Assembly: GCA_040754655.1 (NCBI GenBank)
Contig: JBFMCE010000105.1
Coordinates: 1-12,318, forward strand
Length of the DNA stretch: 12,318 nt
Reading direction: 5' to 3'
Source of the DNA: Bdellovibrionota bacterium
GTDB taxonomy: Bacteria > Bdellovibrionota > UBA1018 > UBA923
Part shown: in pieces, positions 1 to 12,318 of the stretch
How the letters are laid out: each line of letters starts with the position of its first letter
Numbering within the stretch: the stretch's first letter is position 1
Notes under the pieces: model-generated
Database searches by the model: none
The model's input: only the letters and a program-made list of their open reading frames with translations
What the model was told of the DNA's origin: nothing
Made by a program: the position numbers and the translations under genes

Positions 1-58
1 TGATGGGGGGTTTTTTCAGCGGAGCAAGGGCTTGTCCCTTCGTAAATACTGTCGCCAT
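1..58 (-). CDS. 5' fragment of a probable MaoC-family (hot-dog fold, HadB-like) dehydratase; runs off the window edge
   Basis: Not in the ORF track. ATG at 58 lies 3 nt after the stop of the upstream gene, preceded by AAGGG. It reads MATVFTKGQALAPLKKPPI..., which resembles the 'G..LP.L.KPPIT' N-terminus of MaoC dehydratases that pair with MaoC_dehydrat_N proteins. Confidence 0.6.
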   Translation of the reverse strand, partial: MATVFTKGQALAPLKKPPI

Positions 59-61
59 TGT

Positions 62-460
62 TTACCCTTTGACAATAATGGTGCTCGAACACTCGACGCA
101 GACTTCTGAGTCCTGATCGATCAGGTTCGTTTGAAAAACGTAGATGCTCATCTTGCCGCTTCCGCCAGACTTCTCTATTTGGCTCGCGACGAAAGTTTCG
201 CCCCTGTAAGTTTGATCCGGCCTCAATTCCTTGATGAACTTGTACTTTTGCTCGCCATGCAAAACTTTCTGCAACGGGATATTCAACTTCTTCAATGCTT
301 CAAACTCGCCATTTCGAAAAATGGTCGCAAGCGTCGGTGGAGCCAGCGGACGGAAATCTTGGCTCCAATCGGTCGCCTCAAAAAACAACTTTGCCTGCGC
401 GAATGGCACCGATGCCTCGAAGATAGCGATGGGATCTGTTGGGTCTAGTTGCGTCGTCAT
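62..460 (-). CDS. MaoC_dehydrat_N / FAS1-like dehydratase domain protein (HadA-like)
   Basis: 132 aa with APPTL, VLHGEQKYKFIKELRP and KSGGSGKM..YVFQT motifs typical of this hot-dog family. ATGA overlap with the oppA-like stop. Confidence 0.8.
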   Translation of the reverse strand: MTTQLDPTDPIAIFEASVPFAQAKLFFEATDWSQDFRPLAPPTLATIFRNGEFEALKKLNIPLQKVLHGEQKYKFIKELRPDQTYRGETFVASQIEKSGGSGKMSIYVFQTNLIDQDSEVCVECSSTIIVKG

Positions 461-1992
461 TTGGTGAATACGATGTCTCGAAAATAAACGTAGTTCAAGG
501 GATTAATCACGAAGTTCTTCACCTTGGGATTCAGGAGGTAGACCAGTGAGTCAAAATACAAAGGAACGATCACGGCCTCGTCTACCAATAAAATTTGAAG
601 CGCTTCCTTGTACAAGCGAGTGCGCTCTGCGCCTTCATTCAACGAGGCTGCTTTCTTCACGAGCGCGTCGTACTTCTCATTTTGCCAACCAGTTCTGCTG
701 TTTCCCGAGGTCGAAAGAAAAACACTCAAAAAACTATCAGGGTCGGCGTAATCAGCTCCCCAGCATCGGTGATAGAGGGCGCCAGTCATGAGCTCAAGTT
801 GGGTGCGGAACATCTTAAACTCAGGGGCTTGCAGTCGAAGCGCTAGGCCCATGTTCTTCTTCACCTGATCTTGCAGGTATTGGGCGAGCAACGTGTTTTC
901 ATCGCTTGCATAGGTGAAGAGTTCGATTCCGCTCAATGTCGTCGGATCAATGCCCACCTCTTTAAGCTTATTTTTCGCTTCGACTGGATTGAAGCTGATT
1001 CCGATGTTTTTTCCTGCCGGGAAAAGCGATTCCGGAACCAAAGTATCCGTATGCTGAATCGAATGGTGCATCACTTTCATGAGCTTTGACTTGTCGATCG
1101 ACATGGCGAGCGCTTTGCGAACCTTCGGCAGGTTGAAGGGATACTTCTTGGTGTTGATGTTGATGTAGCAATTCCTGTAGTACGGATCGACATGGAACGA
1201 GGGTTTATCGCTGAATTCCTTTACTTCCAGGAAGTTGATCGGACGCACAAAGTCGAGTTGCCCTGTTTTGAACAGGTTCAGCGCCGTGGAATCTTCATTG
1301 ATGATGGGCATGACCACCGTATCGACTTGCGGGGGAGGGCCGTAATACTTCTCATTTCTCTTAAGGGTGATTTGCGCCTGAGGTTGGTATGAAACCGGGA
1401 TATAGGGGCCCAAGACCACGACGTTACCCGGTCTTGGCCAATTCACCCCGTGTTTTGCGACCACGTCTTCACGCACCGGAAACGTGATCCAAAACGTGAG
1501 GATTTGCAAAAAATAACCCACAGGTTTTTTGAGTTTGATTTGGATTGTATACGGGTCAAGTGCCTTTACGCCGACAGAATCAAAGTCATTGCTCTTGCGC
1601 GTATTGAATTCTTCGGCGCCCTCGACGTCAAAGAGCATGTAAGCGTAAGGGGCCGCCGTGAGAGGGTCAAGCAGCCGCTTGAATGAATAGATGAAATCCG
1701 CGGCTTGCATTGATTTGCCGTCAGACCACTTCACGTCATTTCGAAGTTTAAAGGTATAGGTTTTTCGGTCTTTTGAGATCGTCCATGATTTGGCGAGCTT
1801 AGGCCTAATCTTCATTTTGCGATCTGACTCGACCAGCCCCTCCATGATGTTCATGACGATGGGAGTTTCCATCGAGGTGTGAGCGAGATTCCAATCCAAG
1901 GTCTGAGGATCCGCGATCAACCGCATCCGAAAGGTCGTCTCAGCATGGGCAAAAGAATAAGTGACGAGGAAGAAGGTTAGTAAGGTTCGCAT
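457..1992 (-). CDS. oppA: Peptide ABC transporter substrate-binding protein (SBP family 5, OppA-like)
   Basis: 511 aa. Signal peptide ends in AHA. Motifs DPQTLD, EGLV, LAKSWTIS.D.KTYTFKLR..VKWSDG, GPY, WGADYADPDSFL. Confidence 0.9.
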   Translation of the reverse strand: MRTLLTFFLVTYSFAHAETTFRMRLIADPQTLDWNLAHTSMETPIVMNIMEGLVESDRKMKIRPKLAKSWTISKDRKTYTFKLRNDVKWSDGKSMQAADFIYSFKRLLDPLTAAPYAYMLFDVEGAEEFNTRKSNDFDSVGVKALDPYTIQIKLKKPVGYFLQILTFWITFPVREDVVAKHGVNWPRPGNVVVLGPYIPVSYQPQAQITLKRNEKYYGPPPQVDTVVMPIINEDSTALNLFKTGQLDFVRPINFLEVKEFSDKPSFHVDPYYRNCYININTKKYPFNLPKVRKALAMSIDKSKLMKVMHHSIQHTDTLVPESLFPAGKNIGISFNPVEAKNKLKEVGIDPTTLSGIELFTYASDENTLLAQYLQDQVKKNMGLALRLQAPEFKMFRTQLELMTGALYHRCWGADYADPDSFLSVFLSTSGNSRTGWQNEKYDALVKKAASLNEGAERTRLYKEALQILLVDEAVIVPLYFDSLVYLLNPKVKNFVINPLNYVYFRDIVFTK

Positions 1993-2014
1993 ACTGCTCT
2001 ATTTACCAGCAGTG

Positions 2015-2305
2015 TTATGGAATGACGACAGCAATGTCACCATGCACTTTGGACTGGCAAGAAAGGCGTGACTCCGTTGTGCGACCGTCTTTGTATTCGA
2101 GGCGTTCGCTTTCCTCTTCATCCATCACAGAAAGATTTGCGGCGCCCTCTTTCACGTAAATATGGCACGTTGTGCAAGCGCAGAAGCCACCGCAGGCGTG
2201 ATTAAGGTCCACTTCGTTATCGAGCGCAGCGTCAAGAATCGTTTGCCCGTCTGCGACCTCGGTTGTCTTTGCAAGAGAGATCCAATGGATTTTATGACGC
2301 TTCAT
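2015..2305 (-). CDS. fdx: ISC-type [2Fe-2S] ferredoxin (96 aa)
   Basis: HACGGFCACTTCH...RLSCQ cluster motif. Start moved from 2449 to ATG 2305 (MKRHKIHW), 10 nt after the iscA stop. Confidence 0.92.
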   Translation of the reverse strand: MKRHKIHWISLAKTTEVADGQTILDAALDNEVDLNHACGGFCACTTCHIYVKEGAANLSVMDEEESERLEYKDGRTTESRLSCQSKVHGDIAVVIP

Positions 2306-2315
2306 GAGCCAAGTC

Positions 2316-2645
2316 CTAGACCGAAAATGAAGTTCCGCATCCACAGGTGCGTTTGGCGTTGGGATTGTTGAAGCTGAATCCCGTGCCTGAAAGGCCGCCG
2401 CTGTAATCGAGTTCGGTCCCGGCGAGGTACAGGTAGCTTTTAGGGTCAACTACCACTCTGACGCCGTCGCGTTCAAACACTTTGTCTTCGGGACGGGGTT
2501 CTTTGGTTTCAAAATCGAGCTTGTACGACATGCCTGAGCATCCGCCTCCGATCACCATTACGCGGATGTGAGAGTTTTTAGCTGAAGGGTCCGCTTCTTT
2601 AAGTCGCTTGATTTCATTTACGGCGTTGTCGGTCATGTTAATCAT
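2316..2645 (-). CDS. iscA: A-type Fe-S carrier (IscA/HesB family)
   Basis: GGGCSGMSY and NPNAKRTCGCGTSF motifs. ATGA overlap with the iscS stop. Confidence 0.93.
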   Translation of the reverse strand: MINMTDNAVNEIKRLKEADPSAKNSHIRVMVIGGGCSGMSYKLDFETKEPRPEDKVFERDGVRVVVDPKSYLYLAGTELDYSGGLSGTGFSFNNPNAKRTCGCGTSFSV

Positions 2646-3832
2646 AGATTACTCCTTAGATCTGTTTGAGCGAATTTCCAAGTCTGAGATTCTTCCCTTA
2701 ATTTTTGAACAGCTTCTTGAATACAATGTGCCGTCAATTCAACTTCTTCCAGTGTCGTAAATCTTCCGAGCCCCAATCGAATCGTTCCCCGGGCAAAGGG
2801 TTCTGAGAGTTTGATCGCTTTCAAAACGTGCGAGGGTTCCGCTTGGGCTGAAGCACATGCGCTTCCCGAGGATGCCGCGATGTCTCTCATCGCCGAAAGG
2901 ATCGAGCCACTTTCAAGAAACGCGAAGCTTAAGCTTAGGTTATTGGGCAGTCGATTGCTTAAATCTCCATTCACCTGCACTTGGGTCAGCCCAGCCAGAA
3001 CCCTTGCCTGCAGTTCGTCACGCAATTCTCCGATGCGAGCGGATTCCACTCGGCGAGACTCCAGGCAAAGCTGCGCCGCCTCTCCTAAACCAATGATGCC
3101 AGGCACATTCAGGGTGCCTGAGCGAATGCCGCGTTCATGCCGGCCTCCGTGCGTTTGAGGTTCGAGGCTCACTCGAGGCGAGCGGCGGCGTACATAAAGA
3201 GCGCCTACACCTTTTGGCCCGTATATCTTGTGCGCGCTCAGCGAAAGAAGGTCGATCCCTTCCGCATTAACATCATGTTCAATCAAACCCACGCTCTGTG
3301 CGGCATCGGTATGAAAATAAATGCCATGTTTTTTAGCAATTTTTCCGATCTCGCTAACAGGCTGGCGCGTTCCGATCTCGTTGTTGGCCGAAAGGACCGA
3401 GATCATGAAAGTGTCTTTTCCAATAGCGCCTTCAAGCTCCTCAAGATTGATTCTTCCAAGCGTATCAACGCTCAAATAAGTGACCCTGAAACCTTGGGTC
3501 TCAAGATAGCCACAAGTTTCTAAGACTGATGAGTGTTCGACTTGCGAGGCGATGATGTGCCCTGTTTTCCTCTCTCGCGCCGCACCAAGCAGGGCCAAGT
3601 TATTTGCCTCGGTCGCACCGCTGGTGAAAACGATCTCTTGCGGGTGAGCCTTGATCAAAGAAGCTACTTGCAGTCGCGCGGTCTCGACGGCTTCTTCCGC
3701 CTGCCACCCGAAAGCATGAGTGCGGCTTGCTGCGTTGCCAAACTTTTCAGTGAAAAAAGGAAGCATCGCTTCGAGCACCCGAGGGTCAACAGGAGTTGTT
3801 GAGTGGTGGTCTAGGAAGACCGGAAGTTTCAT
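2642..3832 (-). CDS. iscS: Cysteine desulfurase, group I (396 aa)
   Basis: FLDHHSTTP, FGNAASRTH, FTSGATEANN, SAHKIYGPKG (PLP Lys), RSGTLNVP, SSGSAC (catalytic Cys). Start at ATG 3832 has a GGAGAGGA RBS and an ATGA overlap with the Rrf2 stop. Confidence 0.95.
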   Translation of the reverse strand: MKLPVFLDHHSTTPVDPRVLEAMLPFFTEKFGNAASRTHAFGWQAEEAVETARLQVASLIKAHPQEIVFTSGATEANNLALLGAARERKTGHIIASQVEHSSVLETCGYLETQGFRVTYLSVDTLGRINLEELEGAIGKDTFMISVLSANNEIGTRQPVSEIGKIAKKHGIYFHTDAAQSVGLIEHDVNAEGIDLLSLSAHKIYGPKGVGALYVRRRSPRVSLEPQTHGGRHERGIRSGTLNVPGIIGLGEAAQLCLESRRVESARIGELRDELQARVLAGLTQVQVNGDLSNRLPNNLSLSFAFLESGSILSAMRDIAASSGSACASAQAEPSHVLKAIKLSEPFARGTIRLGLGRFTTLEEVELTAHCIQEAVQKLREESQTWKFAQTDLRSNL

Positions 3833-4329
3833 GGTTCCTCTCCGCTTGCGCCAAATACGACAGAGTCGTACGCACTTGCCGTCGAAGAATCGAATTCGAT
3901 TGAACGGGGAAGTGCTGCGCGGGTCAATTCTTCCACAGATATACGATTCAGGAAGTCGTAAAACCGGGTATTTAATGCCGACATCATAGATTTGATGTTG
4001 CAGTTCGTCGTGTATTCGCATGACGAATCTTTTCCATCGCATTCTTGCAAACAACTGACAATGGATACTGGTCCTTCCATAATGCTCAGAAATTCGGCAA
4101 AATTTATCCCTTTAAGATCGCGCGCCAGAATATATCCACCCCGCGTTCCATAGGTTGAGGTGATGACGCCTTGTTCTTTTAAACGTTGCAGGGTCTTAGC
4201 AAGAATCTCGAAGGGCAGTTGAAACTTTTCAGAGATCTCTCGAGCACTTGTAACTTCGCCATTTGTTTTTGAACGAATATAACTGAGCGCCATAAGTCCG
4301 TACTCGGTTGATCGGTTGAGCTTTAGCAT
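3829..4329 (-). CDS. Rrf2-family transcriptional regulator (IscR/SufR-like Fe-S sensor)
   Basis: TEYGL, SAREIS, S..G..GGY.LAR, EGP and Cys93/97/104/110. It is the first gene of the isc-like cluster, with a GAGGA RBS. Confidence 0.9.
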   Translation of the reverse strand: MLKLNRSTEYGLMALSYIRSKTNGEVTSAREISEKFQLPFEILAKTLQRLKEQGVITSTYGTRGGYILARDLKGINFAEFLSIMEGPVSIVSCLQECDGKDSSCEYTTNCNIKSMMSALNTRFYDFLNRISVEELTRAALPRSIEFDSSTASAYDSVVFGASGEEP

Positions 4330-4364
4330 GGGGTTTCCTCAAGCGTTATTACGCTAAAATCACT

Positions 4365-4389
4365 AAATGCGACTTTTATTATCGTACTT
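4365..4389. promoter_or_regulatory. Degenerate second copy of the putative Rrf2 operator
   Basis: TGCGAC-N7-ATCGTA (4368-4386) matches the TACGAT-N7-ATCGTA core of the 4456-4492 palindrome. It lies ~35 nt upstream of the Rrf2 start. Confidence 0.55.
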
Positions 4390-4455
4390 GTTTTGGAATT
4401 CGAAAACAATCGTTTTTATCATGCAAAGCGTTAATATTAAAGGTAATTTCTCCCC

Positions 4456-4492
4456 CCTTTTATATACGATAAAATTTATCGTATATAAAAGG
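4456..4492. promoter_or_regulatory. Perfect 18-1-18 inverted repeat, probable Rrf2 operator
   Basis: CCTTTTATATACGATAAA-A-TTTATCGTATATAAAAGG. The central 25 bp has IscR type-1-like geometry and overlaps a candidate minus-strand promoter TTGCCT-N18-TATCGT (4495-4466). Confidence 0.7.
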
Positions 4493-4512
4493 CAAGTGCA
4501 AATTTGAAGGCT

Positions 4513-4542
4513 TTGACTTCCGGCGTAAATAATGATTAATAT
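4513..4542 (+). promoter_or_regulatory. Candidate sigma70 promoter of the rpsU operon
   Basis: TTGACT (4513-4518)-N18-TAATAT (4537-4542), followed by a strong RBS GAGGAGGT (4563-4570). Confidence 0.5.
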
Positions 4543-4578
4543 CGAGCACTTATTTGCCAAGTGAGGAGGTGATGTCGC

Positions 4579-4782
4579 ATGCCAGGAGTTCGCATTAATG
4601 AAGGCGAATCTTTTGAGAACGCACTGAAACGATTTAAGAAACAGTGCGAGAAGGCTGGAATTCTTTCTGAGGTTCGTAAACGCGAGTCTTACGAAAAACC
4701 TAGCGTGAAGAAAAAGAAGAAAGCACTTGCTGCTCGAAAGAGGGCTCTCAAGAAGATTCGTAAGTCATCACCAAGGGATTAA
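4579..4782 (+). CDS. rpsU: 30S ribosomal protein bS21
   Basis: [33 protein letters not shown] motif, strong RBS, canonical position. Confidence 0.97.
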
Positions 4783-4790
4783 TTACACTT

Positions 4791-5240
4791 ATGGCGACAA
4801 TCAAAGAGCGCATTTCTGAAGACATGAAAGCCGCGATGAAGTCAGGCGAGAAAGCCAGGCTCGGAGCGATTCGCATGCTTCACTCTGCCATTCGAAAAAA
4901 AGAAATTGATGATCGCATCGAGCTTGATGACGCAGGCGTGATGAAGATCATTGGTTCTCTCGTCAAACAACGACAAGATTCGATAGACCAGTTTAGGGCT
5001 GGAGGCAGGGAAGATTTGGTTGAAAAAGAAACTGCCGAGCTTCAACTCTTGCAAGGCTACTTGCCTGCGCAGATGTCGCAAGAGGAACTTGTTCGGATTG
5101 TTGAAGCATCGATCCAAGAGGCTAACGCAAAGACGCAGAAAGACATGGGTGCCGTCATGAAAGTGCTCATGCCGAAAATTGCGGGGCGTGCAGACGGCAA
5201 GTTGGTCAACCAACTCGTTCGAGAACGATTGTCTGCGTAA
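4791..5240 (+). CDS. yqeY: GatB/YqeY domain protein
   Basis: DMKAAMKS, KQRQDSIDQF..GGREDL, YLP.Q, KDMGAVMK, GRADGK motifs. Conserved position after rpsU. Confidence 0.93.
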   Translation: MATIKERISEDMKAAMKSGEKARLGAIRMLHSAIRKKEIDDRIELDDAGVMKIIGSLVKQRQDSIDQFRAGGREDLVEKETAELQLLQGYLPAQMSQEELVRIVEASIQEANAKTQKDMGAVMKVLMPKIAGRADGKLVNQLVRERLSA

Positions 5241-5242
5241 AA

Positions 5243-5869
5243 GTGTATTCAGTTCAGGTTGAACGAGGGCGAGACTTGGTTTCGCCCTCGTTTTTTGATC
5301 GAAAGACTCTAAAGGTTGCCAGAGATCTCTTAGGACGAGAAATTATTAGGCAAGTGGGTCCGTCGTGGTTGCGGGCGCGAATTGTAGAAACTGAAGCTTA
5401 TTTGGAAAAGGATGATCCCGCGGCCCATTGCAGTAGGGGGCCGACGCCAAGAGCCAAGGTGATGTTTGGACCGCCCGGGGTTATTTACGTTTACTTCATC
5501 TACGGAAACTACTTCATGCTCAATTTCGTAACGGAAAAAGAGGGCAAAGCAGGAGCCGTGTTGATACGTGCCGTAGAGCCCGTTGAGGGAATTGAAACGA
5601 TGGTCCAGTTGAGGGGTATTCGGTCAGAGGTTTTGCGGGGAAGAAGTCTTTTACAGCTGACCAATGGCCCGGCGAAGCTCGTGCTTGCGCTGGGTATTGA
5701 CGGGAGTTTGAATGGAAAGCCTTTGGCTCTGCCTCATTTAGCAGTGGCCCGGGGTAAACCCGTAGCGGACAAGGATGTCGTGGTTACTACTAGAATTGGA
5801 ATTAATGTTGCGAAAGAGCTGCCTTATCGATTTTACGAGAAAGGGAACCCTTTCGTAAGCAAGTTATGA
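5243..5869 (+). CDS. mpg: DNA-3-methyladenine glycosylase (MPG/AAG family); exact start uncertain
   Basis: VARDLLG, IVETEAY, D.AAH, MFG..G..YVYFIYG, GAVLIRAVEP, NGPAKL, RIGI motifs. Confidence 0.9.
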   Translation: MYSVQVERGRDLVSPSFFDRKTLKVARDLLGREIIRQVGPSWLRARIVETEAYLEKDDPAAHCSRGPTPRAKVMFGPPGVIYVYFIYGNYFMLNFVTEKEGKAGAVLIRAVEPVEGIETMVQLRGIRSEVLRGRSLLQLTNGPAKLVLALGIDGSLNGKPLALPHLAVARGKPVADKDVVVTTRIGINVAKELPYRFYEKGNPFVSKL

Positions 5870-7734
5870 CAGATTTTATAAAACAGCTCAAAGAGCAAAT
5901 CAATGTTGCCGAGGTTGTGGGTGAATATGTTCGTCTGAAAAAGACGGGTTCAAACCACATGGGGCTGTGTCCCTTCCATGCTGAGAGATCTCCATCTTTT
6001 TCGGTCTCTGAGAAGAAGGGAATCTACCACTGCTTTGGTTGCCAACGCGGCGGCGATGCGATTTCTTTCGTTCAGGAAATTCAGGCGGTCTCTTTTCATG
6101 AGGCGGTTCGTATTCTTTGCTCGAAATACGGCATTAAGATTCCGGCCGAGTTTTCTTCAAAGAGCGCTCAGAGGAACGAGAAAAACGAAGATAAGTTTGA
6201 GATCTATTACAAGCTCAATCGATTTGTCGCCCAGTTCTATCATGAGAAACTCTTGGGTAGCGAGGGTAAAGAGGCGCGCGATTACCTTAAACGACGCGGC
6301 ATCCTCGATTCGACGGTGAAGACGGCATATTTAGGCTATGCATCCGCAGAATGGGCGGAGTTGCATGATTTCTTGAAGTCAAAGAAGGCTCCCCTGGATC
6401 GCGCCGAAGAATTGGGTTTGATCAGGAGGAAAGCGACCGGCGCGGATGCATCAGGCCGACTGCACTACGACTTGTTCCGCGATCGCGTCTTGTTCCCGGT
6501 GACTGATACCAAGGGAAGAGTGGTCGCTTTCGGCGGAAGAGCGTTGCATGATACTGACGGCCCTAAGTATTTGAATTCGACTGAAAGCCCTGTTTTCAAA
6601 AAGGGCTCGCAACTCTTTGGGCTTTTTTTCGCTCAGAAAGACATCCGAGCCGAAGACACTTGCGTTGTAGTCGAGGGCTTCATGGACTGCATCAGCCTTC
6701 AACAAGCAGGAATTGGTTATACGGTTGCAACTCTGGGTACGGCACTTTCTGAAAAACAGGTCGCGGTCTTGAAAAGGTTCACTAAGAACATTGTTTTGCT
6801 CTTCGACGGCGACTCCGCTGGTAAAGAAGCTCAAGCCAGAGCGATGGAAGTGTTTCTTAATGAGGACCTGGTGGTTCGAGGCGTGAGCCTGCCGGATGGT
6901 CTCGATCCCGATGAGTTTGTTCAAGAACGAGGGGTCGATGAGCTCAAGGCGCTTATAAAGAATGCTCCGTACCTTTTAGACCAACGCATTTTAGAACTTG
7001 CCAGCCAAGCTGGAGCTCATTCTGAAGAAAGAGCTCGAGCTGTAGACCAAGTCCTTCCTTGGGTAGCGAAGATCTCATCTGACACGGCAAGGTTGGTTCG
7101 CCTTCAAGAGTTGGCCGGTTTATTTGATGTCGGTTTTGAAGCGCTCAACAGAAGGCTCGGCGAGCTTCTTCCTCAGACGCAGAAACGACCACAGACTCAA
7201 CCTGCTCCAGCGATCCGCCACCTTCTTAAAGCGAGGCCTGCCGCGGGGGTTCCGTTGCTCGATCCACTGGATGTTCGTGTAGTGGAATGCCTTGTACGAT
7301 ATCCCGAATTGTTTAGTCAAATGACCGACTTTGATGGCATACTCAGTGGGCTTGAATCAGAGGTAGCTAAGAGTCTTGTCGAGAGTCTTATTAAAGAACT
7401 CAAATCCAAATTGGATTGGGATGCGGTTGGACTGCTTGATCGAGTCGGTGGCACGGTCTTTAGGCCAATAGTGACACGCGCGCTTCTTAGCGCTGAAGAA
7501 GACCATTCGAAAGTTCTCAACGAAGAAGAACGCCAGGACCTCGTCAGAGAACTGGGTGATTTAGAGCGCAAGTTGGTTCGCCGCGGACTGGAACGTCGGA
7601 AAGAGCGCCTTCGGGCCGTATTGCTCAAGGCAGACGGGTCAGGCGAAACGAACGAATATAAAAGATTGATGAACGAGTATAACGAGCTTGTGAAGCGATT
7701 GGATGAGACCAAAGGAGGTCAGGTAAACTTATGA
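5866..7734 (+). CDS. dnaG: DNA primase
   Basis: CHC2 zinc finger CPFH...[30 protein letters not shown] and FDGDSAG, DPDE. Confidence 0.97.
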
Positions 7735-9515
7735 CGAAAGCATCCCAAGGAATTGTGGCTGCTGCCAAATCCAAAGAAGTGAAGAAGATTTTGGAATTGG
7801 GTGTTCAGCGCGGGTTTCTAACCTATGAAGAGATTAATGATCTTCTTCCTCCGGATATTCTTGATTCGAGTCGCATCGATGAAATCATGCATGTTCTGAC
7901 TGAGAACGACATCGATGTAGTCGATTCAGTCAAACGCGGTCGTGAAGATGACGAAGGCGATGAAGACGAAACGGAGGAAGTTGAGGAAGAGGTAGAAGGA
8001 GTCGCCGCGGCCGAAGAGGCCTCTCGTAGCACTGATCCGGTGAAACTCTATCTCAAGAAAATGGGCGCTGTTTCGCTTCTCACTAGAGAGGGCGAAGTCG
8101 AGATCGCCAAGCGCATCGAGCAGGGTGAGATCGAGGTTCTTCGGGCTCTGCTTGCGACGCGTGAAGGCGTTGCTTCGATGCTTGAGCTTGAAGAGCGCAT
8201 GGAGAGCGGCAAGCTCAAAGTAAAAGACGTCATTCGCGGTGTTGACGAAGAAGTGAACATGGATGACGAGAAGATGTATTACAACAAGATCATGTCCGCT
8301 CTTGGTAAACTGCGCCAATTCGCGGGTTTGCAAGAAAAGATTTGGCCTAAGATTGAAGACAAGAAACAGCCGCCCAAGGTTCGCGAGAAATCGGTTCAAG
8401 AACTAGAAAAGGCGCGTGAGAAGATTGAAGAAGTGCTGAAAGACGTAGCATTCAACAGGAAGTCTATCAACGCGTTTTCTTACAAGTTGACAATCTGGTA
8501 CGAGCGCCTCAAAGACCTCAAAGAAGAAGAAAAGAAAATCTTCGATTTCTTGGAAGTCGCGGATCAAAAAGATTTCCGCGCCCTGGTGAAGAAATTCACC
8601 GCGGGTGGAAATGAACGTTTCCAGCTTTTAAGGTCGCTCGACACTTCAGAACAAAAGATCGATCAACTGATCAAGCAAGAAGAAGACATCTTGCGTCGTC
8701 GAGCGAAGGTCGAAGTCGAATGCACGATGGCTTACGATAAGCTTGAAAAATTGTATTACGCGATTTCATCGGGCGAACGAAAGGCGGATCTCGCAAAGAG
8801 CGAGCTTGTTGAAGCGAACTTGCGCTTGGTGGTCAGCATCGCGAAGAAATACACCAACCGGGGCTTGCAGTTCTTGGATTTGATCCAAGAAGGCAATATA
8901 GGCTTGATGAAAGCCGTCGACAAGTTCGAGTACCGTCGTGGTTATAAGTTCTCAACCTATGCTACGTGGTGGATTCGCCAGGCGATCACTCGCGCGATCG
9001 CAGACCAAGCACGCACGATTCGTATTCCAGTGCACATGATCGAGACGATCAATAAGTTGATCCGCACCAGTCGCCAGCTTGTTCAAGGATTGGGACGCGA
9101 GCCGACGCCAGAAGAGATCGCCGCTAAGATGGAACTTCCAGTTGAGAAAGTCAGAAAGGTTTTGAAGATCGCGAAAGAACCTATTTCGCTCGAGACTCCG
9201 ATCGGCGAGGAAGAAGATTCATACCTTGGGGATTTCATCGAAGATAAAAAGATCATCTCTCCTGCAGAGGCGGTGATGAGCATCAACCTTTCTGAACAGA
9301 CGCGTAAGGTTCTGGCAACGCTCACGCCTCGTGAAGAGAAGGTCTTGCGCATGCGCTTCGGCATCGGTGAAAAGTCAGACCACACTTTGGAAGAAGTAGG
9401 GCAAGACTTTTTCGTGACTCGTGAGCGTATCCGTCAGATCGAAGCTAAGGCTTTGCGCAAGCTTCGTCATCCGAGCCGCGCGAAGCTGCTGAAGGCTTTT
9501 GTCGACGGAAGTTGA
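7731..9515 (+). CDS. rpoD: Primary sigma factor RpoD
   Basis: Region 1.1, [53 protein letters not shown], region 4 [32 protein letters not shown]. Confidence 0.98.
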
Positions 9516-9550
9516 TCGATCGGATCGCGCGTGGATTGATCTTTTTATTT
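9514..9550 (+). terminator. Possible intrinsic terminator after rpoD
   Basis: GATCGATC/GATTGATC stem (8 bp, one G-U, 12-nt loop) followed by TTTTTATTT. A second weak hairpin lies at 9553-9574. Confidence 0.4.
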
Positions 9551-9577
9551 GCCTGTGCGAATTTTTTTGCGCAGTAA

Positions 9578-9675
9578 TTTTGCGTTCAGACGAGGAAAAC
9601 GAGCCTTTGCGAACGCAAGCGTACAAAAAGTACGCTGAGGAGCAAAGGTGAGTTTGACGAAGTATGAGCGCAAAA
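9578..9675 (+). other. ~98-nt rod-like structured element between rpoD and the tRNA
   Basis: Nested stems 9578-9588/9665-9675, 9597-9600/9652-9655, 9603-9610/9642-9649 and 9618-9624/9630-9636 (AGCGTAC-AAAAA-GTACGCT). Confidence 0.6.
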
Positions 9676-9687
9676 GAACAAGTAAGC

Positions 9688-9764
9688 GGGCCCATAGCTC
9701 AGTTGGTTAGAGCTTCCGGCTCATAACCGGGTGGTCGCAGGTTCGAGTCCTGCTGGGCCCACCA
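9688..9764 (+). tRNA. ileX: tRNA with CAT anticodon, most likely tRNA-Ile2 (lysidine-modified)
   Basis: 77-nt cloverleaf with GGGCCCA/TGGGCCC acceptor stem, anticodon CAT at 9722-9724, GGTTCGAGTCC T-arm and encoded CCA. C4-G69 and C5-G68 (TilS determinants) are present, initiator features are absent, and the position after rpoD matches E. coli ileX. Confidence 0.93.
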
Positions 9765-11431
9765 TTTGTCAAGCTGTTCGAACCATGGAACGCAAGAAGA
9801 TTTGAATGTCTCGACAAATGGTTTTGATTGGCAAGGTCGGTTCCCGTGCCCGCAAGTGGCGGGCGGGAGCCGACCGAAGCCAGCTCCCTTTCGATGTGAT
9901 CTCTCCCAATCAGATATTCGAGTTTGAACCCGTCTTTAGTGATTTTGATTTGATGGATCAGAGTTTGGATGACTTTACTGCAAGCGATTTCATCTTTGGC
10001 GACCTTGGTCAGGCCGACCAAGAGCGTACGGTAGCTTGAAAGACTTGCGGGCATTTGCTGGAAACCCAATTCTCTTTCTAAGTGTCTGAGTCGCTGACCT
10101 TCCTCCTTTTTTATTGCTTCGATTTTCTCCATCTGACGGAACACGGGTTCAGCCGAAACATTCTTGGGGAGTTGGGCTAATCTCTCGGCAAGAACCTCAA
10201 GTTGTCCATTCAGAGAATTTATTTTCTCCCGAGTTCGTTTGAGCTCCGTATTTTGAGTGCGCTTTACGTGGATCTGATTTGCTTTTTCGAGGATGAGTTC
10301 GGCAGTGGCTGGATTTTTGATTAGGTCACCCACTTTCTCCCAGACAGTCGGCTCTAGTCTCTTTGCTTGGACTCGAAACGGTGAACAATTGAAGCACTTC
10401 TTTACAAGACAGCCCTCCCTCCTCGTAGCCCAACCATGTTCGTAGTACGGAACTTTGCCAGCATTTCCGTGTGCTGATTTCCCAACCATTCTCTCGCCAC
10501 AACTCTCGCAAGAGACAAGTCCTGTTAAAAGGAAGGGATACCGCTTTTCATTTTCAGGCTTTCTTTTTCGATTTCTTTTCAGGATTTCTTGCACACGGCA
10601 AAACGTCAGTTCGTCGATGATGGGTTCCCATGCAGCCTTGGTTTCTCTTTTTTCTCCTTTGACTTTGTAGATTCGAATTCCAAGATAGGCTTTGTTTGTG
10701 AGTAAGTCGGAGAGATTTTGAACCGTAAAATGACCAAGTCTTGGTTTGCTACCACCTCCCGATGTTTTTCGACACACTCTGTAATTGTTCGCATTGAGCC
10801 ATTTGGCTGCGTGACTGAGAGATTTCTTTTGGAGAAGTGTTTTGAAAGCCGCTTTTACGATCTCCGCTTGCTCAGGGTCAATCTCCAAGAAACCTCGCTT
10901 TTCGGGAATAAGTTTATAGCCAATGGGCAATACCCCTCCGTTGTAAAGGCCGCGGGCTGCCCTTGTTTGAAAATGCGCAGCCACTCTTTCGGAGACTTGG
11001 CGTCTTTCAAACTGAGCAATGTTGGCAACGGTGTAGAGAACCATTTCTCCTGCCGCTGTTGTCGTGTCGAAGTTTTCGCGGAGACTCATGAATTGGCAGT
11101 TACACGCCTGCATCAGTTCCCAAATCGATGCGAAGTCTTTGATGGATCTCGAAAGCCTGGAAAGTTCAGTGACCATCACTAGACTGATTTCTCGTCTCCT
11201 AATGGCCGAGAGCATTCTTTGAAGTTCTGGCCGGTTCGTATCTTTTCCGGAACGGGCTCGATCAATAAAAACGTCAGAGACTTCTCCAAAAGAAGATTCT
11301 CCATTTTTGAAACGAATCATCTCCCGGAGTCGTTCCTCTTGGTTCTTGATCGATCCTTCCGGATTCTCTGCCTGTTCCTCAGTCGAAACGCGAATGTAGA
11401 GCGCAATTTTGTGAGCGATGGATTTACTCAT
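9707..11431 (-). CDS. Large serine recombinase (resolvase + recombinase + zinc-ribbon/coiled-coil), 574 aa
   Basis: ALYIRVSTEEQ (catalytic Ser), SGKDTNRPEL, LSRLSRS, AQFERRQVSER, G...GG..PIGY, LLTGLVSCESCG, then a coiled coil. Start moved to ATG 11431 (AAAGGAGG RBS). The TAA stop lies in the tRNA D-loop antisense. Confidence 0.93.
   Translation of the reverse strand: MSKSIAHKIALYIRVSTEEQAENPEGSIKNQEERLREMIRFKNGESSFGEVSDVFIDRARSGKDTNRPELQRMLSAIRRREISLVMVTELSRLSRSIKDFASIWELMQACNCQFMSLRENFDTTTAAGEMVLYTVANIAQFERRQVSERVAAHFQTRAARGLYNGGVLPIGYKLIPEKRGFLEIDPEQAEIVKAAFKTLLQKKSLSHAAKWLNANNYRVCRKTSGGGSKPRLGHFTVQNLSDLLTNKAYLGIRIYKVKGEKRETKAAWEPIIDELTFCRVQEILKRNRKRKPENEKRYPFLLTGLVSCESCGERMVGKSAHGNAGKVPYYEHGWATRREGCLVKKCFNCSPFRVQAKRLEPTVWEKVGDLIKNPATAELILEKANQIHVKRTQNTELKRTREKINSLNGQLEVLAERLAQLPKNVSAEPVFRQMEKIEAIKKEEGQRLRHLERELGFQQMPASLSSYRTLLVGLTKVAKDEIACSKVIQTLIHQIKITKDGFKLEYLIGRDHIERELASVGSRPPLAGTGTDLANQNHLSRHSNLLAFHGSNSLTNGGPSRTRTCDHPVMSRKL
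9740..9784. other. Putative hybrid attachment site (attL/attR) of the serine recombinase
   Basis: Inverted pair GGTTCGA (9740-9746, tRNA T-arm) and TCGAACC (9778-9784, element side) flanks the tRNA 3' end within a 45-bp span. Confidence 0.5.
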
Positions 11432-11636
11432 GTGTACCAGTCCTCCTTTGAGCGGGTTCGAGGTTGCTTGGAGAAATACCGGCATTAATAGGTTTGGCTT
11501 TGATTTTGGATCTGTCGAGCTGGCAAAAAAGATCATAGAGGACTTCTGCCAGTTCTGCAATTCGTTGATTGTATTCGTCTTGGTTTATAGTCATAGGAAT
11601 GCATTGAATGATTTGGGGTTTCCATCCCTTTCTCAT
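11424..11636 (-). CDS. Small hypothetical protein (70 aa) coupled to the recombinase
   Basis: GGAG RBS 6 nt before the ATG. 8-nt overlap (ATGAGTAA) with the recombinase start. Amphipathic helix EYNQRIAELAEVLYDLFCQL. Confidence 0.65.
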   Translation of the reverse strand: MRKGWKPQIIQCIPMTINQDEYNQRIAELAEVLYDLFCQLDRSKIKAKPINAGISPSNLEPAQRRTGTHE

Positions 11637-11661
11637 TCGTACTCCGTGTAAAAATTGTACT

Positions 11662-11774
11662 GCCCTGCACCCGCACCAGCTTTTATCGACCGGAAGCGCT
11701 GACCACTCTCACTCGTAGAGGGGGAGTGGTCAGCGGTGGAGATCGATCATTCGAAGAATGTGCGGGTGCAGGGC
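11662..11774. other. 113-nt branched inverted-repeat structure in the element intergenic region
   Basis: Perfect 15-bp outer IR (11662-11676/11760-11774), perfect 12-bp inner IR (11697-11708/11724-11735), ATCGA/TCGAT, and a mini-hairpin at 11748-11760. Confidence 0.8.
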
Positions 11775-11787
11775 TTTGTTTATAAAG

Positions 11788-12117
11788 TCATGGATTTAGC
11801 GAAGAATTGCCGTGCTTAAAAACTGGCCACTTACATCGAACACTGTCTGGTGAAATTCCCATCCGTATTCTGCCATGCTTCGTCAGTTGGAAACCCCAGC
11901 CTAGAAAAGGGGTTCGATAGAAAAAGCGAACAAGTTTCATCTTCTGGAGAATTCTCATTCTCCGAAAATGATGATGGTTGTTCTTTCCAGGCCAAAACGC
12001 TTGCCTGATTTTTTCGTAGTTTGGATGCGTTTGTGTGGCAATGAATTCTAAAATTCGGAGATCGCGCTTAGTCAGTCTGTGTCGCATGAGACGGGAGTTG
12101 ATCTCCAGTAGTTCCAT
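11788..12117 (-). CDS. Small basic winged-helix protein resembling the N-terminal domain of Replic_Relax proteins (109 aa)
   Basis: LTKRDLRILEFI...IRQAFW...RRMRILQKMKLV...FQLTKHG pattern. ATG 12117 is preceded by GGGAAGGAG and preferred over 12144. Confidence 0.6.
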   Translation of the reverse strand: MELLEINSRLMRHRLTKRDLRILEFIATQTHPNYEKIRQAFWPGKNNHHHFRRMRILQKMKLVRFFYRTPFLGWGFQLTKHGRIRMGISPDSVRCKWPVFKHGNSSLNP

Positions 12118-12238
12118 ATGAAATCTCCTTCCCAAACCTTTCATCTCGGTTCTCGGGTGGATCGTAAAAGCAATCTAAGGGCCAAAGGGCTAGCTTTGAA
12201 AAAAGTTGAATGATTTCAGCAAAAGCCTTATTCCGGGG

Positions 12239-12300
12239 GTGGCCCAAATTTGAGCCACTGGCTCAAATTACGGCCGGGGTGTGGCTCAGTTTTCGGCCAC
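12239..12300. repeat. Three ~20-bp quasi-palindromic repeats (iteron/operator-like)
   Basis: GTGGCCCAAATTTGAGCCAC (12239-12258), CTGGCTCAAATTACGGCCGG (12258-12277), GTGGCTCAGTTTTCGGCCAC (12281-12300). Confidence 0.7.
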
Positions 12301-12318
12301 TTGTTTTCAAGGATGAGG

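Follow-up and report, generated by a model that had tools for sequence, protein, structure and literature searches.

A clade of large serine recombinases at tRNA 3′ ends with the attachment site apparently placed inside the integrase gene

How does the gene of a site-specific integrase come to end inside the antisense strand of a tRNA gene, and which protein does it encode once its element is free? This question arises from a 12,318-nt stretch of DNA of a Bdellovibrionota bacterium (assembly GCA_040754655.1, contig JBFMCE010000105.1, positions 1 to 12,318; hereafter the window), in which the gene of a large serine recombinase (LSR), named int here, runs into a tRNA gene with the anticodon CAU. 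The reading that we favour, and to which we assign a probability of about 0.6, is that a small integrative element has entered the 3′ end of a chromosomal tRNA(CAU) gene, that the window shows its int-proximal junction, and that the attachment site of the element (attP; its host counterpart is attB) lies inside int, so that integration splits the gene and the isoform of the integrase follows the recombination state.

The integrase gene and its register with the tRNA

The minus-strand int frame of the window is open from 11560 to a TAA at 9709–9707, and no stop codon occurs ahead of the tRNA. The ATG at 11431 is preceded by AAAGGAGGA, and the 574-aa product has the C-terminus ...TNGGPSRTRTCDHPVMSRKL*. 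As the original prediction, made from the letters of the window, had stated, int overlaps the tRNA by 58 nt (9707–9764) and ends within the tRNA antisense, which was confirmed by the coordinates of both the open reading frame (ORF) and ARAGORN. The tRNA scored 72.8 bits across 9688–9761 with Rfam, and its CCA is encoded. Pfam searches with the int product returned Resolvase (PF00239, E = 1.4e-33, residues 10–161), Recombinase (PF07508, 3.1e-17) and Zn_ribbon_recom (PF13408, 5.8e-07); only serine-recombinase domains were matched, with no tyrosine recombinase catalytic domain among them. The nucleophile S16 was invariant in an alignment of 52 sequences, as were C308 and C311 of the zinc ribbon. 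In the AlphaFold model of a relative (locus L047, not the window protein), long helices spanning residues 357–481 between the zinc-ribbon strands form a predicted coiled coil. The parts of the locus are as follows.

9688–9764, plus strand: tRNA with anticodon CAT and encoded CCA, called tRNA-Met by ARAGORN (either elongator Met or Ile2), the integration target
9707–11431, minus strand: LSR gene int in its integrated (short) form, 574 codons and a stop
9905–11431, minus strand: canonical LSR core, residues 1–509, with the resolvase catalytic domain, the recombinase domain, the zinc ribbon with coiled coil, and closing strands that end in FKLEYLIG
9785–9904, minus strand: variable linker of 40 codons, open in frame, from the core to the motif encoded by the attachment site
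9761–9784, minus strand: putative P′ half-site of attP, codons GSNSLTNG (residues 550–557), reading GGTTCGAACAGCTTGACAAA and then TGGT (antisense of ACCA)
9707–9760, minus strand: tRNA-antisense tail of 17 codons and a stop (GPSRTRTCDHPVMSRKL*), not conserved
9761–12318: portion of the integrative element inside the window, continuing past its right end

A protein search yielded 1498 relatives among 8000 scored candidates, the best 120 of the 1498 being 47–68% identical, and the named relatives among the matches listed come from metagenome-assembled genomes (MAGs) of Bdellovibrionota type. Then, a genome scan with the alignment of 52 relative proteins gave 210 encoded relatives, the best 80 of which were analysed with up to 10 kb on each side (these loci carry L numbers; the window's own genome lies outside the 80-locus set). 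The C-termini of the relatives from the protein search share a motif close to GSNSLTNG, followed by unrelated tails that resemble the antisense of different tRNAs. At 49 of the 80 loci, the motif abuts a complete tRNA or transfer-messenger RNA (tmRNA) gene on the opposite strand in the same register, within 1 nt of the end given by ARAGORN. Throughout these 49, the T of the penultimate motif codon together with the GG of the final Gly codon, whose third base is the discriminator, forms the antisense of CCA. The contig ended less than 76 nt past the junction at four further loci, the motif stood without a full tRNA at 14, and it was not found at 13, in eight of which int is truncated or cut by a contig end. 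The group of 14 comprises six loci with partial tRNA 3′ fragments (19–59 nt), three that match a tRNA over at most 10 nt, one tandem junction and four unclear cases.

The targets of the 49 loci are tRNA-Leu (29, with five anticodons), tRNA-Arg (5), tRNA-Val (3), tmRNA (3), tRNA-Ala (2), tRNA-Pro (2), and the tRNAs for Glu, Lys, Gln, Asn and Met (1 each). A count of homologs, suggested along with the original prediction, thus gave 49 of 80 abutting their target in register, the 11 target classes being ten amino-acid tRNAs plus tmRNA. The 3′ end of tmRNA (ssrA) is used in the same register by L011, L037 and L062. The fragments of 19–59 nt follow the motif in L031 (11419–12536), L009 (11647–12001), L003, L038, L041 and L076, and in L031 and L009 a full copy of the fragmented tRNA stands 0.3–1 kb beyond it, as though a second, later element had entered the same tRNA and displaced the fragment. 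Two loci are labelled outside Bdellovibrionota, namely L002 (a 4.4-kb contig binned as Candidatus Aenigmatarchaeota) and L072 (a 73-kb contig binned as Polynucleobacter), which reflects either mis-binning or a wider host range.

The peptide motif GSNSLTNG is also conserved as DNA (GGTTCGAAT..TTGACA..TGG). Among 61 sequences (the window and 60 loci), GTTC was found in all 61, and the TTGAC positions matched in 52–58. The third positions of the motif codons were fixed well beyond the codon use elsewhere in int, with GGT in 61/61 (26% elsewhere), TCG in 58/61 (15%), TTG in 53/61 (16%) and ACA in 49/61 (25%). Where the spacing is shifted by one base, the DNA words are kept and the peptide is altered, as in L007 (VRPMLTNG) and in L013, L009, L034, L035 and L042 (ID, VD or LD). 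The integrase frame reads through the motif in 57 of the 61, the exceptions being L018 (437 codons) and the broken genes of L032, L059 and L079. The linkers between core and motif are 8–54 codons long, and those of 51 sequences (ten whose core end was missed by the pattern are omitted) contained no in-frame stop in 1569 codons, against 66 and 137 stops in the other two frames. The tRNA overlap is thus not a product of chance, because the exact register recurs in 49 of the 80 loci and the frame is kept in 57 of the 61. A lost stop codon, which the original prediction had named as a way in which it could fail, is contradicted by the same read-through and by the stop-free linkers, as the homologs do not stop before the tRNA. 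A scan of 9400–12318 returned no promoter-like site, and five terminator-like sites against 4.1 expected, and was uninformative; the TTGACA in the P′ arm was therefore treated as belonging to a binding site rather than to a promoter.

The far end of the element and the distal helix-turn-helix exon

The distal end was searched for at each locus as its own 6-mer at the tRNA end followed by N19 and GAAC[TC]. This pattern gave 21 same-strand matches upstream of int, in 18 loci, none downstream and one on the opposite strand, the shuffled mean being 0.3 over all loci. A matrix made from 18 sites added five loci (L017, L020, L038, L044 and L067; scores 11–33, best background below 7); the seed sites score high by construction, and only the five added sites are independent. 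Of the 36 motif loci whose sequence covers 9 kb or more on the side of the element, 21 showed a distal junction. Elements with both ends measure 3088–10213 bp, and the far end of that in L031 adjoins the host gene metG. The identity between the two ends runs from CCA inward for 6–11 nt (with one mismatch in L038), with essentially none left of CCA. A junction well downstream of the tRNA, which would have spoken against the original prediction, was not what these elements showed, the end identity being confined to the last 6–11 nt of the tRNA. L016 and L064 were not counted as attP-type junctions, their downstream arms being degenerate (stops, no helix-turn-helix domain).

The attP site was rebuilt in silico at the 23 loci by joining both element ends. 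The results showed that the int frame remains open for 38–101 further codons in 23 of 23 loci, and that this frame passes from the distal arm GAACC into a conserved helix-turn-helix (HTH) domain of about 65–100 codons, which is recognisable in most of the 23 and degenerate in two (L032 and L067). Read directly from the loci, unjoined, the distal exons have G1, E9, W21 and L31 invariant and show a recurrent pattern of the type YPIQW...LAELAKLRW. The P arm makes up the first ten codons of the exon, its GAA-CC giving an invariant Glu-Pro, and upstream, in host DNA, the exon frame closes after 1–59 codons with no conserved start; L030, with a remnant int ahead, is the exception. A contiguous natural long ORF exists in L047, where an int-less 4.4-kb element with its own P′ motif beside the tRNA lies between int and tRNA-Leu, and where 636 codons (9854–11764) run across the tandem attP. 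Two relatives, P0122 (631 aa) and P0086 (658 aa), carry the HTH domain C-terminally.

Since the distal arm continues in frame into the HTH domain in 23 relatives, the sequences indicate that attP lies inside the int ORF, within the linker, and that integration partitions the gene to both ends of the element. The integrated state accordingly encodes the complete LSR core with a tRNA-antisense tail, and the excised or tandem state adds the conserved HTH domain. The original prediction of a serine-family enzyme with attP in the 3′ part of int was therefore borne out in the 23 relatives with both ends visible, in which int stays open across the rebuilt site; the far end of the window's own element lies beyond the window. 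Its expectation of different C-terminal tails held in all 23, but its guess of a short tail was too small, as the excised form gains a whole conserved domain. Degenerate P′-like arms precede the distal junctions at L030 (8167), L044 (1833), L056 (7146) and L067 (3550), and L030 also keeps a 282-codon remnant of the int frame ahead of its distal junction; judged by sequence, these are leftovers of older tandem insertions.

A profile of the HTH exon matched 835 cluster representatives at E ≤ 1e-3 and 238 at E ≤ 1e-10. Most of the best 150 of the 835 matches are 60–200 aa long and start ahead of profile position 1 by a few residues, the others being long multi-repeat HTH proteins; the short matches that start near position 1 are therefore taken as orphan ORFs at distal junctions. 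The named matches are almost all a 'hypothetical protein' of Bdellovibrionota MAGs, and a weak search for longer HTH-bearing proteins gave three matches, one of which is a natural long integrase. The exon had weak generic matches in Pfam (HTH_23 in 8 of 20 members, Sigma70_r4 in 7 of 20, best E 2.5e-6 with HTH_38) and nothing better than E = 0.019 against PDB sequences. AlphaFold, given a 20-sequence alignment, predicted an HTH of three helices and one additional helix, with a mean predicted local distance difference test score (pLDDT) of 77. Foldseek with this model found no PDB match at E ≤ 0.001, the nearest being DNA-binding domains of the LuxR, DeoR and MntR types (template-modelling score about 0.45), and the ESM Atlas gave only leads below 0.9. 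The model of the long ORF of L047 is confident through the LSR core, up to about residue 528; its residues 529–579, including the att-encoded codons, have a pLDDT below 50, and the HTH domain follows, the alignment being only three sequences deep in the att-encoded and HTH part.

Site geometry, host neighbours and cargo

Offsets were counted on the int strand from the T of TGG (offset 0). The P′ arm has GGTTC at −20 to −16 and the P arm GAACC at +25 to +29, and the two are therefore symmetric about offsets 4/5 (centre 4.5), which correspond to tRNA positions 72/71. The tRNA word GAAC, antisense of G53-T54-T55-C56, lies at +20 to +23, 5 bp nearer to the centre than in the attP arms. With the centre at 4/5, GTTC/GAAC occupies positions 21–24 in both attP arms and 16–19 in the tRNA. 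The motif bound by the zinc-ribbon domain (ZD) has been placed at positions 16–24 of attP half-sites and 11–19 of attB half-sites (Rutherford et al., PMC3783163). The sites described here, as sequences, fit this published rule of a 5-bp ZD shift between attP and attB. The following two assignments in the window rest on this rule, the identity block and the symmetry centre.

9759–9760: inferred crossover dinucleotide, tRNA positions 71–72, ±1–3 nt, inside the 6-nt block 9759–9764
9740–9758: putative B half-site of attB, formed by the acceptor and T arm of the tRNA, with G53-T54-T55-C56 at 9741–9744

We thus infer that strand exchange takes place at tRNA positions 72/71, whereby the element would swap the last few nucleotides of the tRNA for an identical copy. 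Likewise, the universal T-loop sequence G53-T54-T55-C56 may serve as the ZD motif of the attB half-site, which would explain the use of many tRNAs and tmRNA by one clade. L041 and L051 have a common P arm from offset 6 on and differ at offsets 3–5, where each matches its own tRNA, which places the boundary between host and element at 5|6. With the centre at offsets 4/5, the putative crossover core reads GG in the window, whereas the lineages at tRNA-Leu and tRNA-Pro (L020, L048 and L022 are examples from these two groups) have GC and CG, respectively. A crossover inside CCA, the sole placement that is non-palindromic in every lineage, was set aside as less likely, since neither the symmetry between the attP arms nor the 5-bp shift would then hold.

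The neighbourhood of int in the window contains the following further features.

5866–7734, plus strand: host dnaG (Pfam)
7731–9515, plus strand: host rpoD (Pfam)
11424–11636, minus strand: conserved 70-aa ORF ending at the int start (tblastn)
11788–12144, minus strand: 118-aa ORF without a Pfam match, with a clear relative only in L002 among the 80 loci

To the left of the tRNA, the plus-strand host genes are yqeY, a methylpurine glycosylase gene, dnaG and rpoD (Pfam), and because dnaG and rpoD lie directly left of it, the tRNA of the window is chromosomal and not borne by the element. This tRNA with the CAT anticodon sits directly downstream of dnaG-rpoD, and the same tRNA species is used by L061. 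Relatives of the 70-aa ORF were found at 39 of the 80 loci (tblastn E < 0.01), always just upstream of int, and the codons of its C-terminal residues (..RTGTxx) overlap the ribosome-binding region of int, which is conserved. It had neither a Pfam match nor a usable ESM Atlas match, and is a candidate for a directionality factor or regulator.

Cargo differs among the elements. The 118-aa ORF is probably the cargo of the window, L061 carries a 184-aa protein, and the int-less element of L047 has a LysR regulator and a HEAT-repeat protein. A 3.1-kb element in L031 carries, at 8753–9365, a ParE-like toxin, whose match (E = 7e-4) falls short of the Pfam cut-off, along with an Xre-type HTH partner; the pair is likely an addiction module on a minimal integrative element. 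The int-less 4.4-kb element of L047 (11519–15887) has its own P′ motif at tRNA-Leu(tag), a P arm and a divergent HTH exon and stands in tandem with an int-bearing element; from its sequence it looks like a satellite that depends on the integrase of its neighbour.

Proposed mechanism, rival explanations and precedents

Under the reading with attP inside int, the excised circle or a tandem array would encode a long integrase, in which the core is followed by a disordered linker containing attP and then by the HTH domain. Integration would cut int inside the linker, and the short form would end in tRNA antisense. The long form may be the integration-proficient enzyme made while the element is free, and the short form may remain for excision from a single insertion, perhaps with the product of the 70-aa upstream ORF as directionality factor. 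As attP sits in the linker that joins the core to a conserved DNA-binding domain, it would be the recombination state that sets the isoform and might thereby bias directionality or stability. Most integrated copies keep an intact HTH exon. This suggests that the elements become circular at a frequency on which selection can act, in which case the long form would be needed, most simply for integration. We further propose, tentatively and as something possible rather than probable, that the clade carries directionality control in the topology of its own gene, with the HTH domain needed for integration or biasing it, the short form excising or doing nothing, and the T-loop GTTC acting as the attB motif.

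Several observations weigh against this picture. The distal junction was found in only 23 of the 67 motif loci, with the matrix trained on 18 of those 23, and all relatives are MAG contigs. Neither an excised circle nor an empty attB was seen, the genome scan having been aimed at integrase relatives. In the window itself, which ends about 2.5 kb into the element, neither the distal junction nor the HTH exon was found by the pattern, the matrix or the HTH profile over six frames. Gene finders call the HTH exon as a separate small ORF, possibly an independent gene. The host-side B′ half-site showed no conserved motif in 20 junctions. Moreover, with the crossover at 72/71 the GC and CG cores are palindromic, which would abolish polarity in characterised LSRs, where a non-palindromic 2-bp core sets it (PMC3783163).

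The main rival holds that the HTH domain is essential for all recombination, so that the short form is inert and the integrase suicidal, locking the element in until a long form is provided in trans by an incoming circle or a tandem neighbour. The same logic has been described for SSV-type tyrosine integrases (PMC8371274) and was raised for dsiB by McMurdie et al. (PMC3146451), and the tandem arrays, remnants and int-less satellite that such a history would leave are common (L047, L030, L044, L056 and L067). However, the short form keeps every canonical LSR domain, only two of the 23 HTH exons are degenerate, and the family has diversified across many tRNAs and cargos. Intact exons and diversification both argue for a regular excised state, which requires excision from single-copy insertions, and we consider lock-in unlikely. 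We think it more unlikely still that the distal HTH ORF is an independent gene for an excisionase or regulator, joined in frame by accident, with the C-terminus of int irrelevant in both states. HTH excisionases are often located at element ends, gene finders report a stand-alone ORF of 60–200 aa, and the Pfam matches to generic HTH families are weak, yet conservation begins at the first codon past the crossover, the P arm itself encoding G1, E9 and P10, and the host frame upstream closes after 1–59 codons without a conserved start. All 23 joins are in frame and stop-free, contiguous long ORFs occur naturally, and selection keeps int open up to the site.

Two simpler accounts appear very improbable. 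If a stop codon had been lost by accident and the tRNA overlap were meaningless, the 17-aa tail would lack conservation, as it does, and 19 open codons in tRNA antisense are possible by chance at one locus taken alone; nevertheless, the same motif is read through in the same frame in 57 of 61 sequences, no motif-bearing relative stops ahead of it, and the register with the tRNA end is invariant. The tRNA might instead be cargo of the element and not its target, since tRNA and int are adjacent in every locus. That account is just as hard to credit, for the tRNA of the window follows host dnaG-rpoD, the tRNA species varies among close integrase relatives while the P′ arm stays constant, only the last 6–11 nt recur at the far end, and the far end in L031 adjoins metG.

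Attachment sites within genes have precedents. The Myxococcus phage Mx8 targets a tRNA, and SSV1-type integrases of archaeal viruses and plasmids target tRNA genes; for the integrases of A118/LI, Bxb1 and phiC31, attP lies outside the int ORF. In the integration-dependent immunity of mycobacteriophages, attP lies inside a gene whose free and integrated forms differ C-terminally and are used as a switch, but there the gene that is split encodes a repressor, integration is catalysed by a tyrosine enzyme, and the switch acts through a degradation tag. The window int resembles Mx8 IntP in that its short form keeps all of its domains, here those of an LSR and not of a tyrosine enzyme, while its 3′ end is replaced by tRNA antisense. 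The tyrosine precedents named in the original prediction, Mx8 and SSV1, are among the closest known systems; a serine precedent had been overlooked, namely dsiB of the Dehalococcoides ssrA islands (PMC3146451). DsiB is a large serine recombinase of about 540 aa encoded at the edge of small non-conjugative islands at the tmRNA 3′ end, and its gene overlaps attL with the stop codon outside the island, as in the window (PMC3146451). Its authors raised the possibility that full activity is limited to the enzyme encoded on the circle or next to a further island, and tandem islands occur (PMC3146451). The differences from the published account (PMC3146451) are that dsiB islands use ssrA only, against a tRNA in the window and tmRNA in 3 of 80 relatives; that they have a 20-bp direct repeat with insertion inferred in the T-loop, against 6–11 nt of identity and a putative crossover near 71–72 here; and that dsiB has a companion small serine recombinase, DsiA, in its operon, whereas no such companion is seen here, the ORFs beside the window int having no Pfam match. 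The available excerpt (PMC3146451) describes neither a conserved C-terminal domain at the far end nor a DNA half-site analysis or a range of tRNAs, and dsiB is likened here by description.

In Mx8, attP likewise lies in the 3′ part of int, and integration gives the gene a new 3′ end and an altered prophage form (IntP/IntX), but the enzyme is a tyrosine recombinase with a long attP containing arm sites, and no removal of a folded domain is reported in the excerpt available (PMC6070905). SSV1-type integrases also have att within the int ORF, and integration parts the gene to both ends of the element (PMC8371274, PMC7253208); these are tyrosine recombinases whose split is thought to be inactivating, whereas a complete LSR core survives here (PMC8371274). 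The integrases of A118/LI, Bxb1 and phiC31 share the domain set and predicted coiled coil, an attP of about 50 bp, an attB of about 40 bp and the ZD motif shifted by 5 bp, but require a separate directionality factor (PMC3783163). A Prochlorococcus preprint, in the part available, mentions a large serine recombinase in 27 of 937 elements and leaves the place of integration unstated. Within a literature coverage that leaves out most subscription journals, we found no paper on a clade of LSRs that targets tRNAs, on a C-terminal HTH domain that is split off, or on the T-loop as an attB motif.

How LSRs choose between integration and excision is an active question, explained so far by separate directionality factors that act on the coiled coil. 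The clade described here conflicts with the published statement that tRNA genes are not targets of serine integrases, and it suggests a target rule, namely a T-loop GTTC set at a constant distance from CCA, which could help to find island borders and to choose integrases for genome engineering. At 3.1 kb, its shortest elements are among the smallest self-integrating units. If the proposed control by gene topology is true, no separate factor would be needed to report the state of the element, and nearly any tRNA or tmRNA 3′ end would be a potential landing site.

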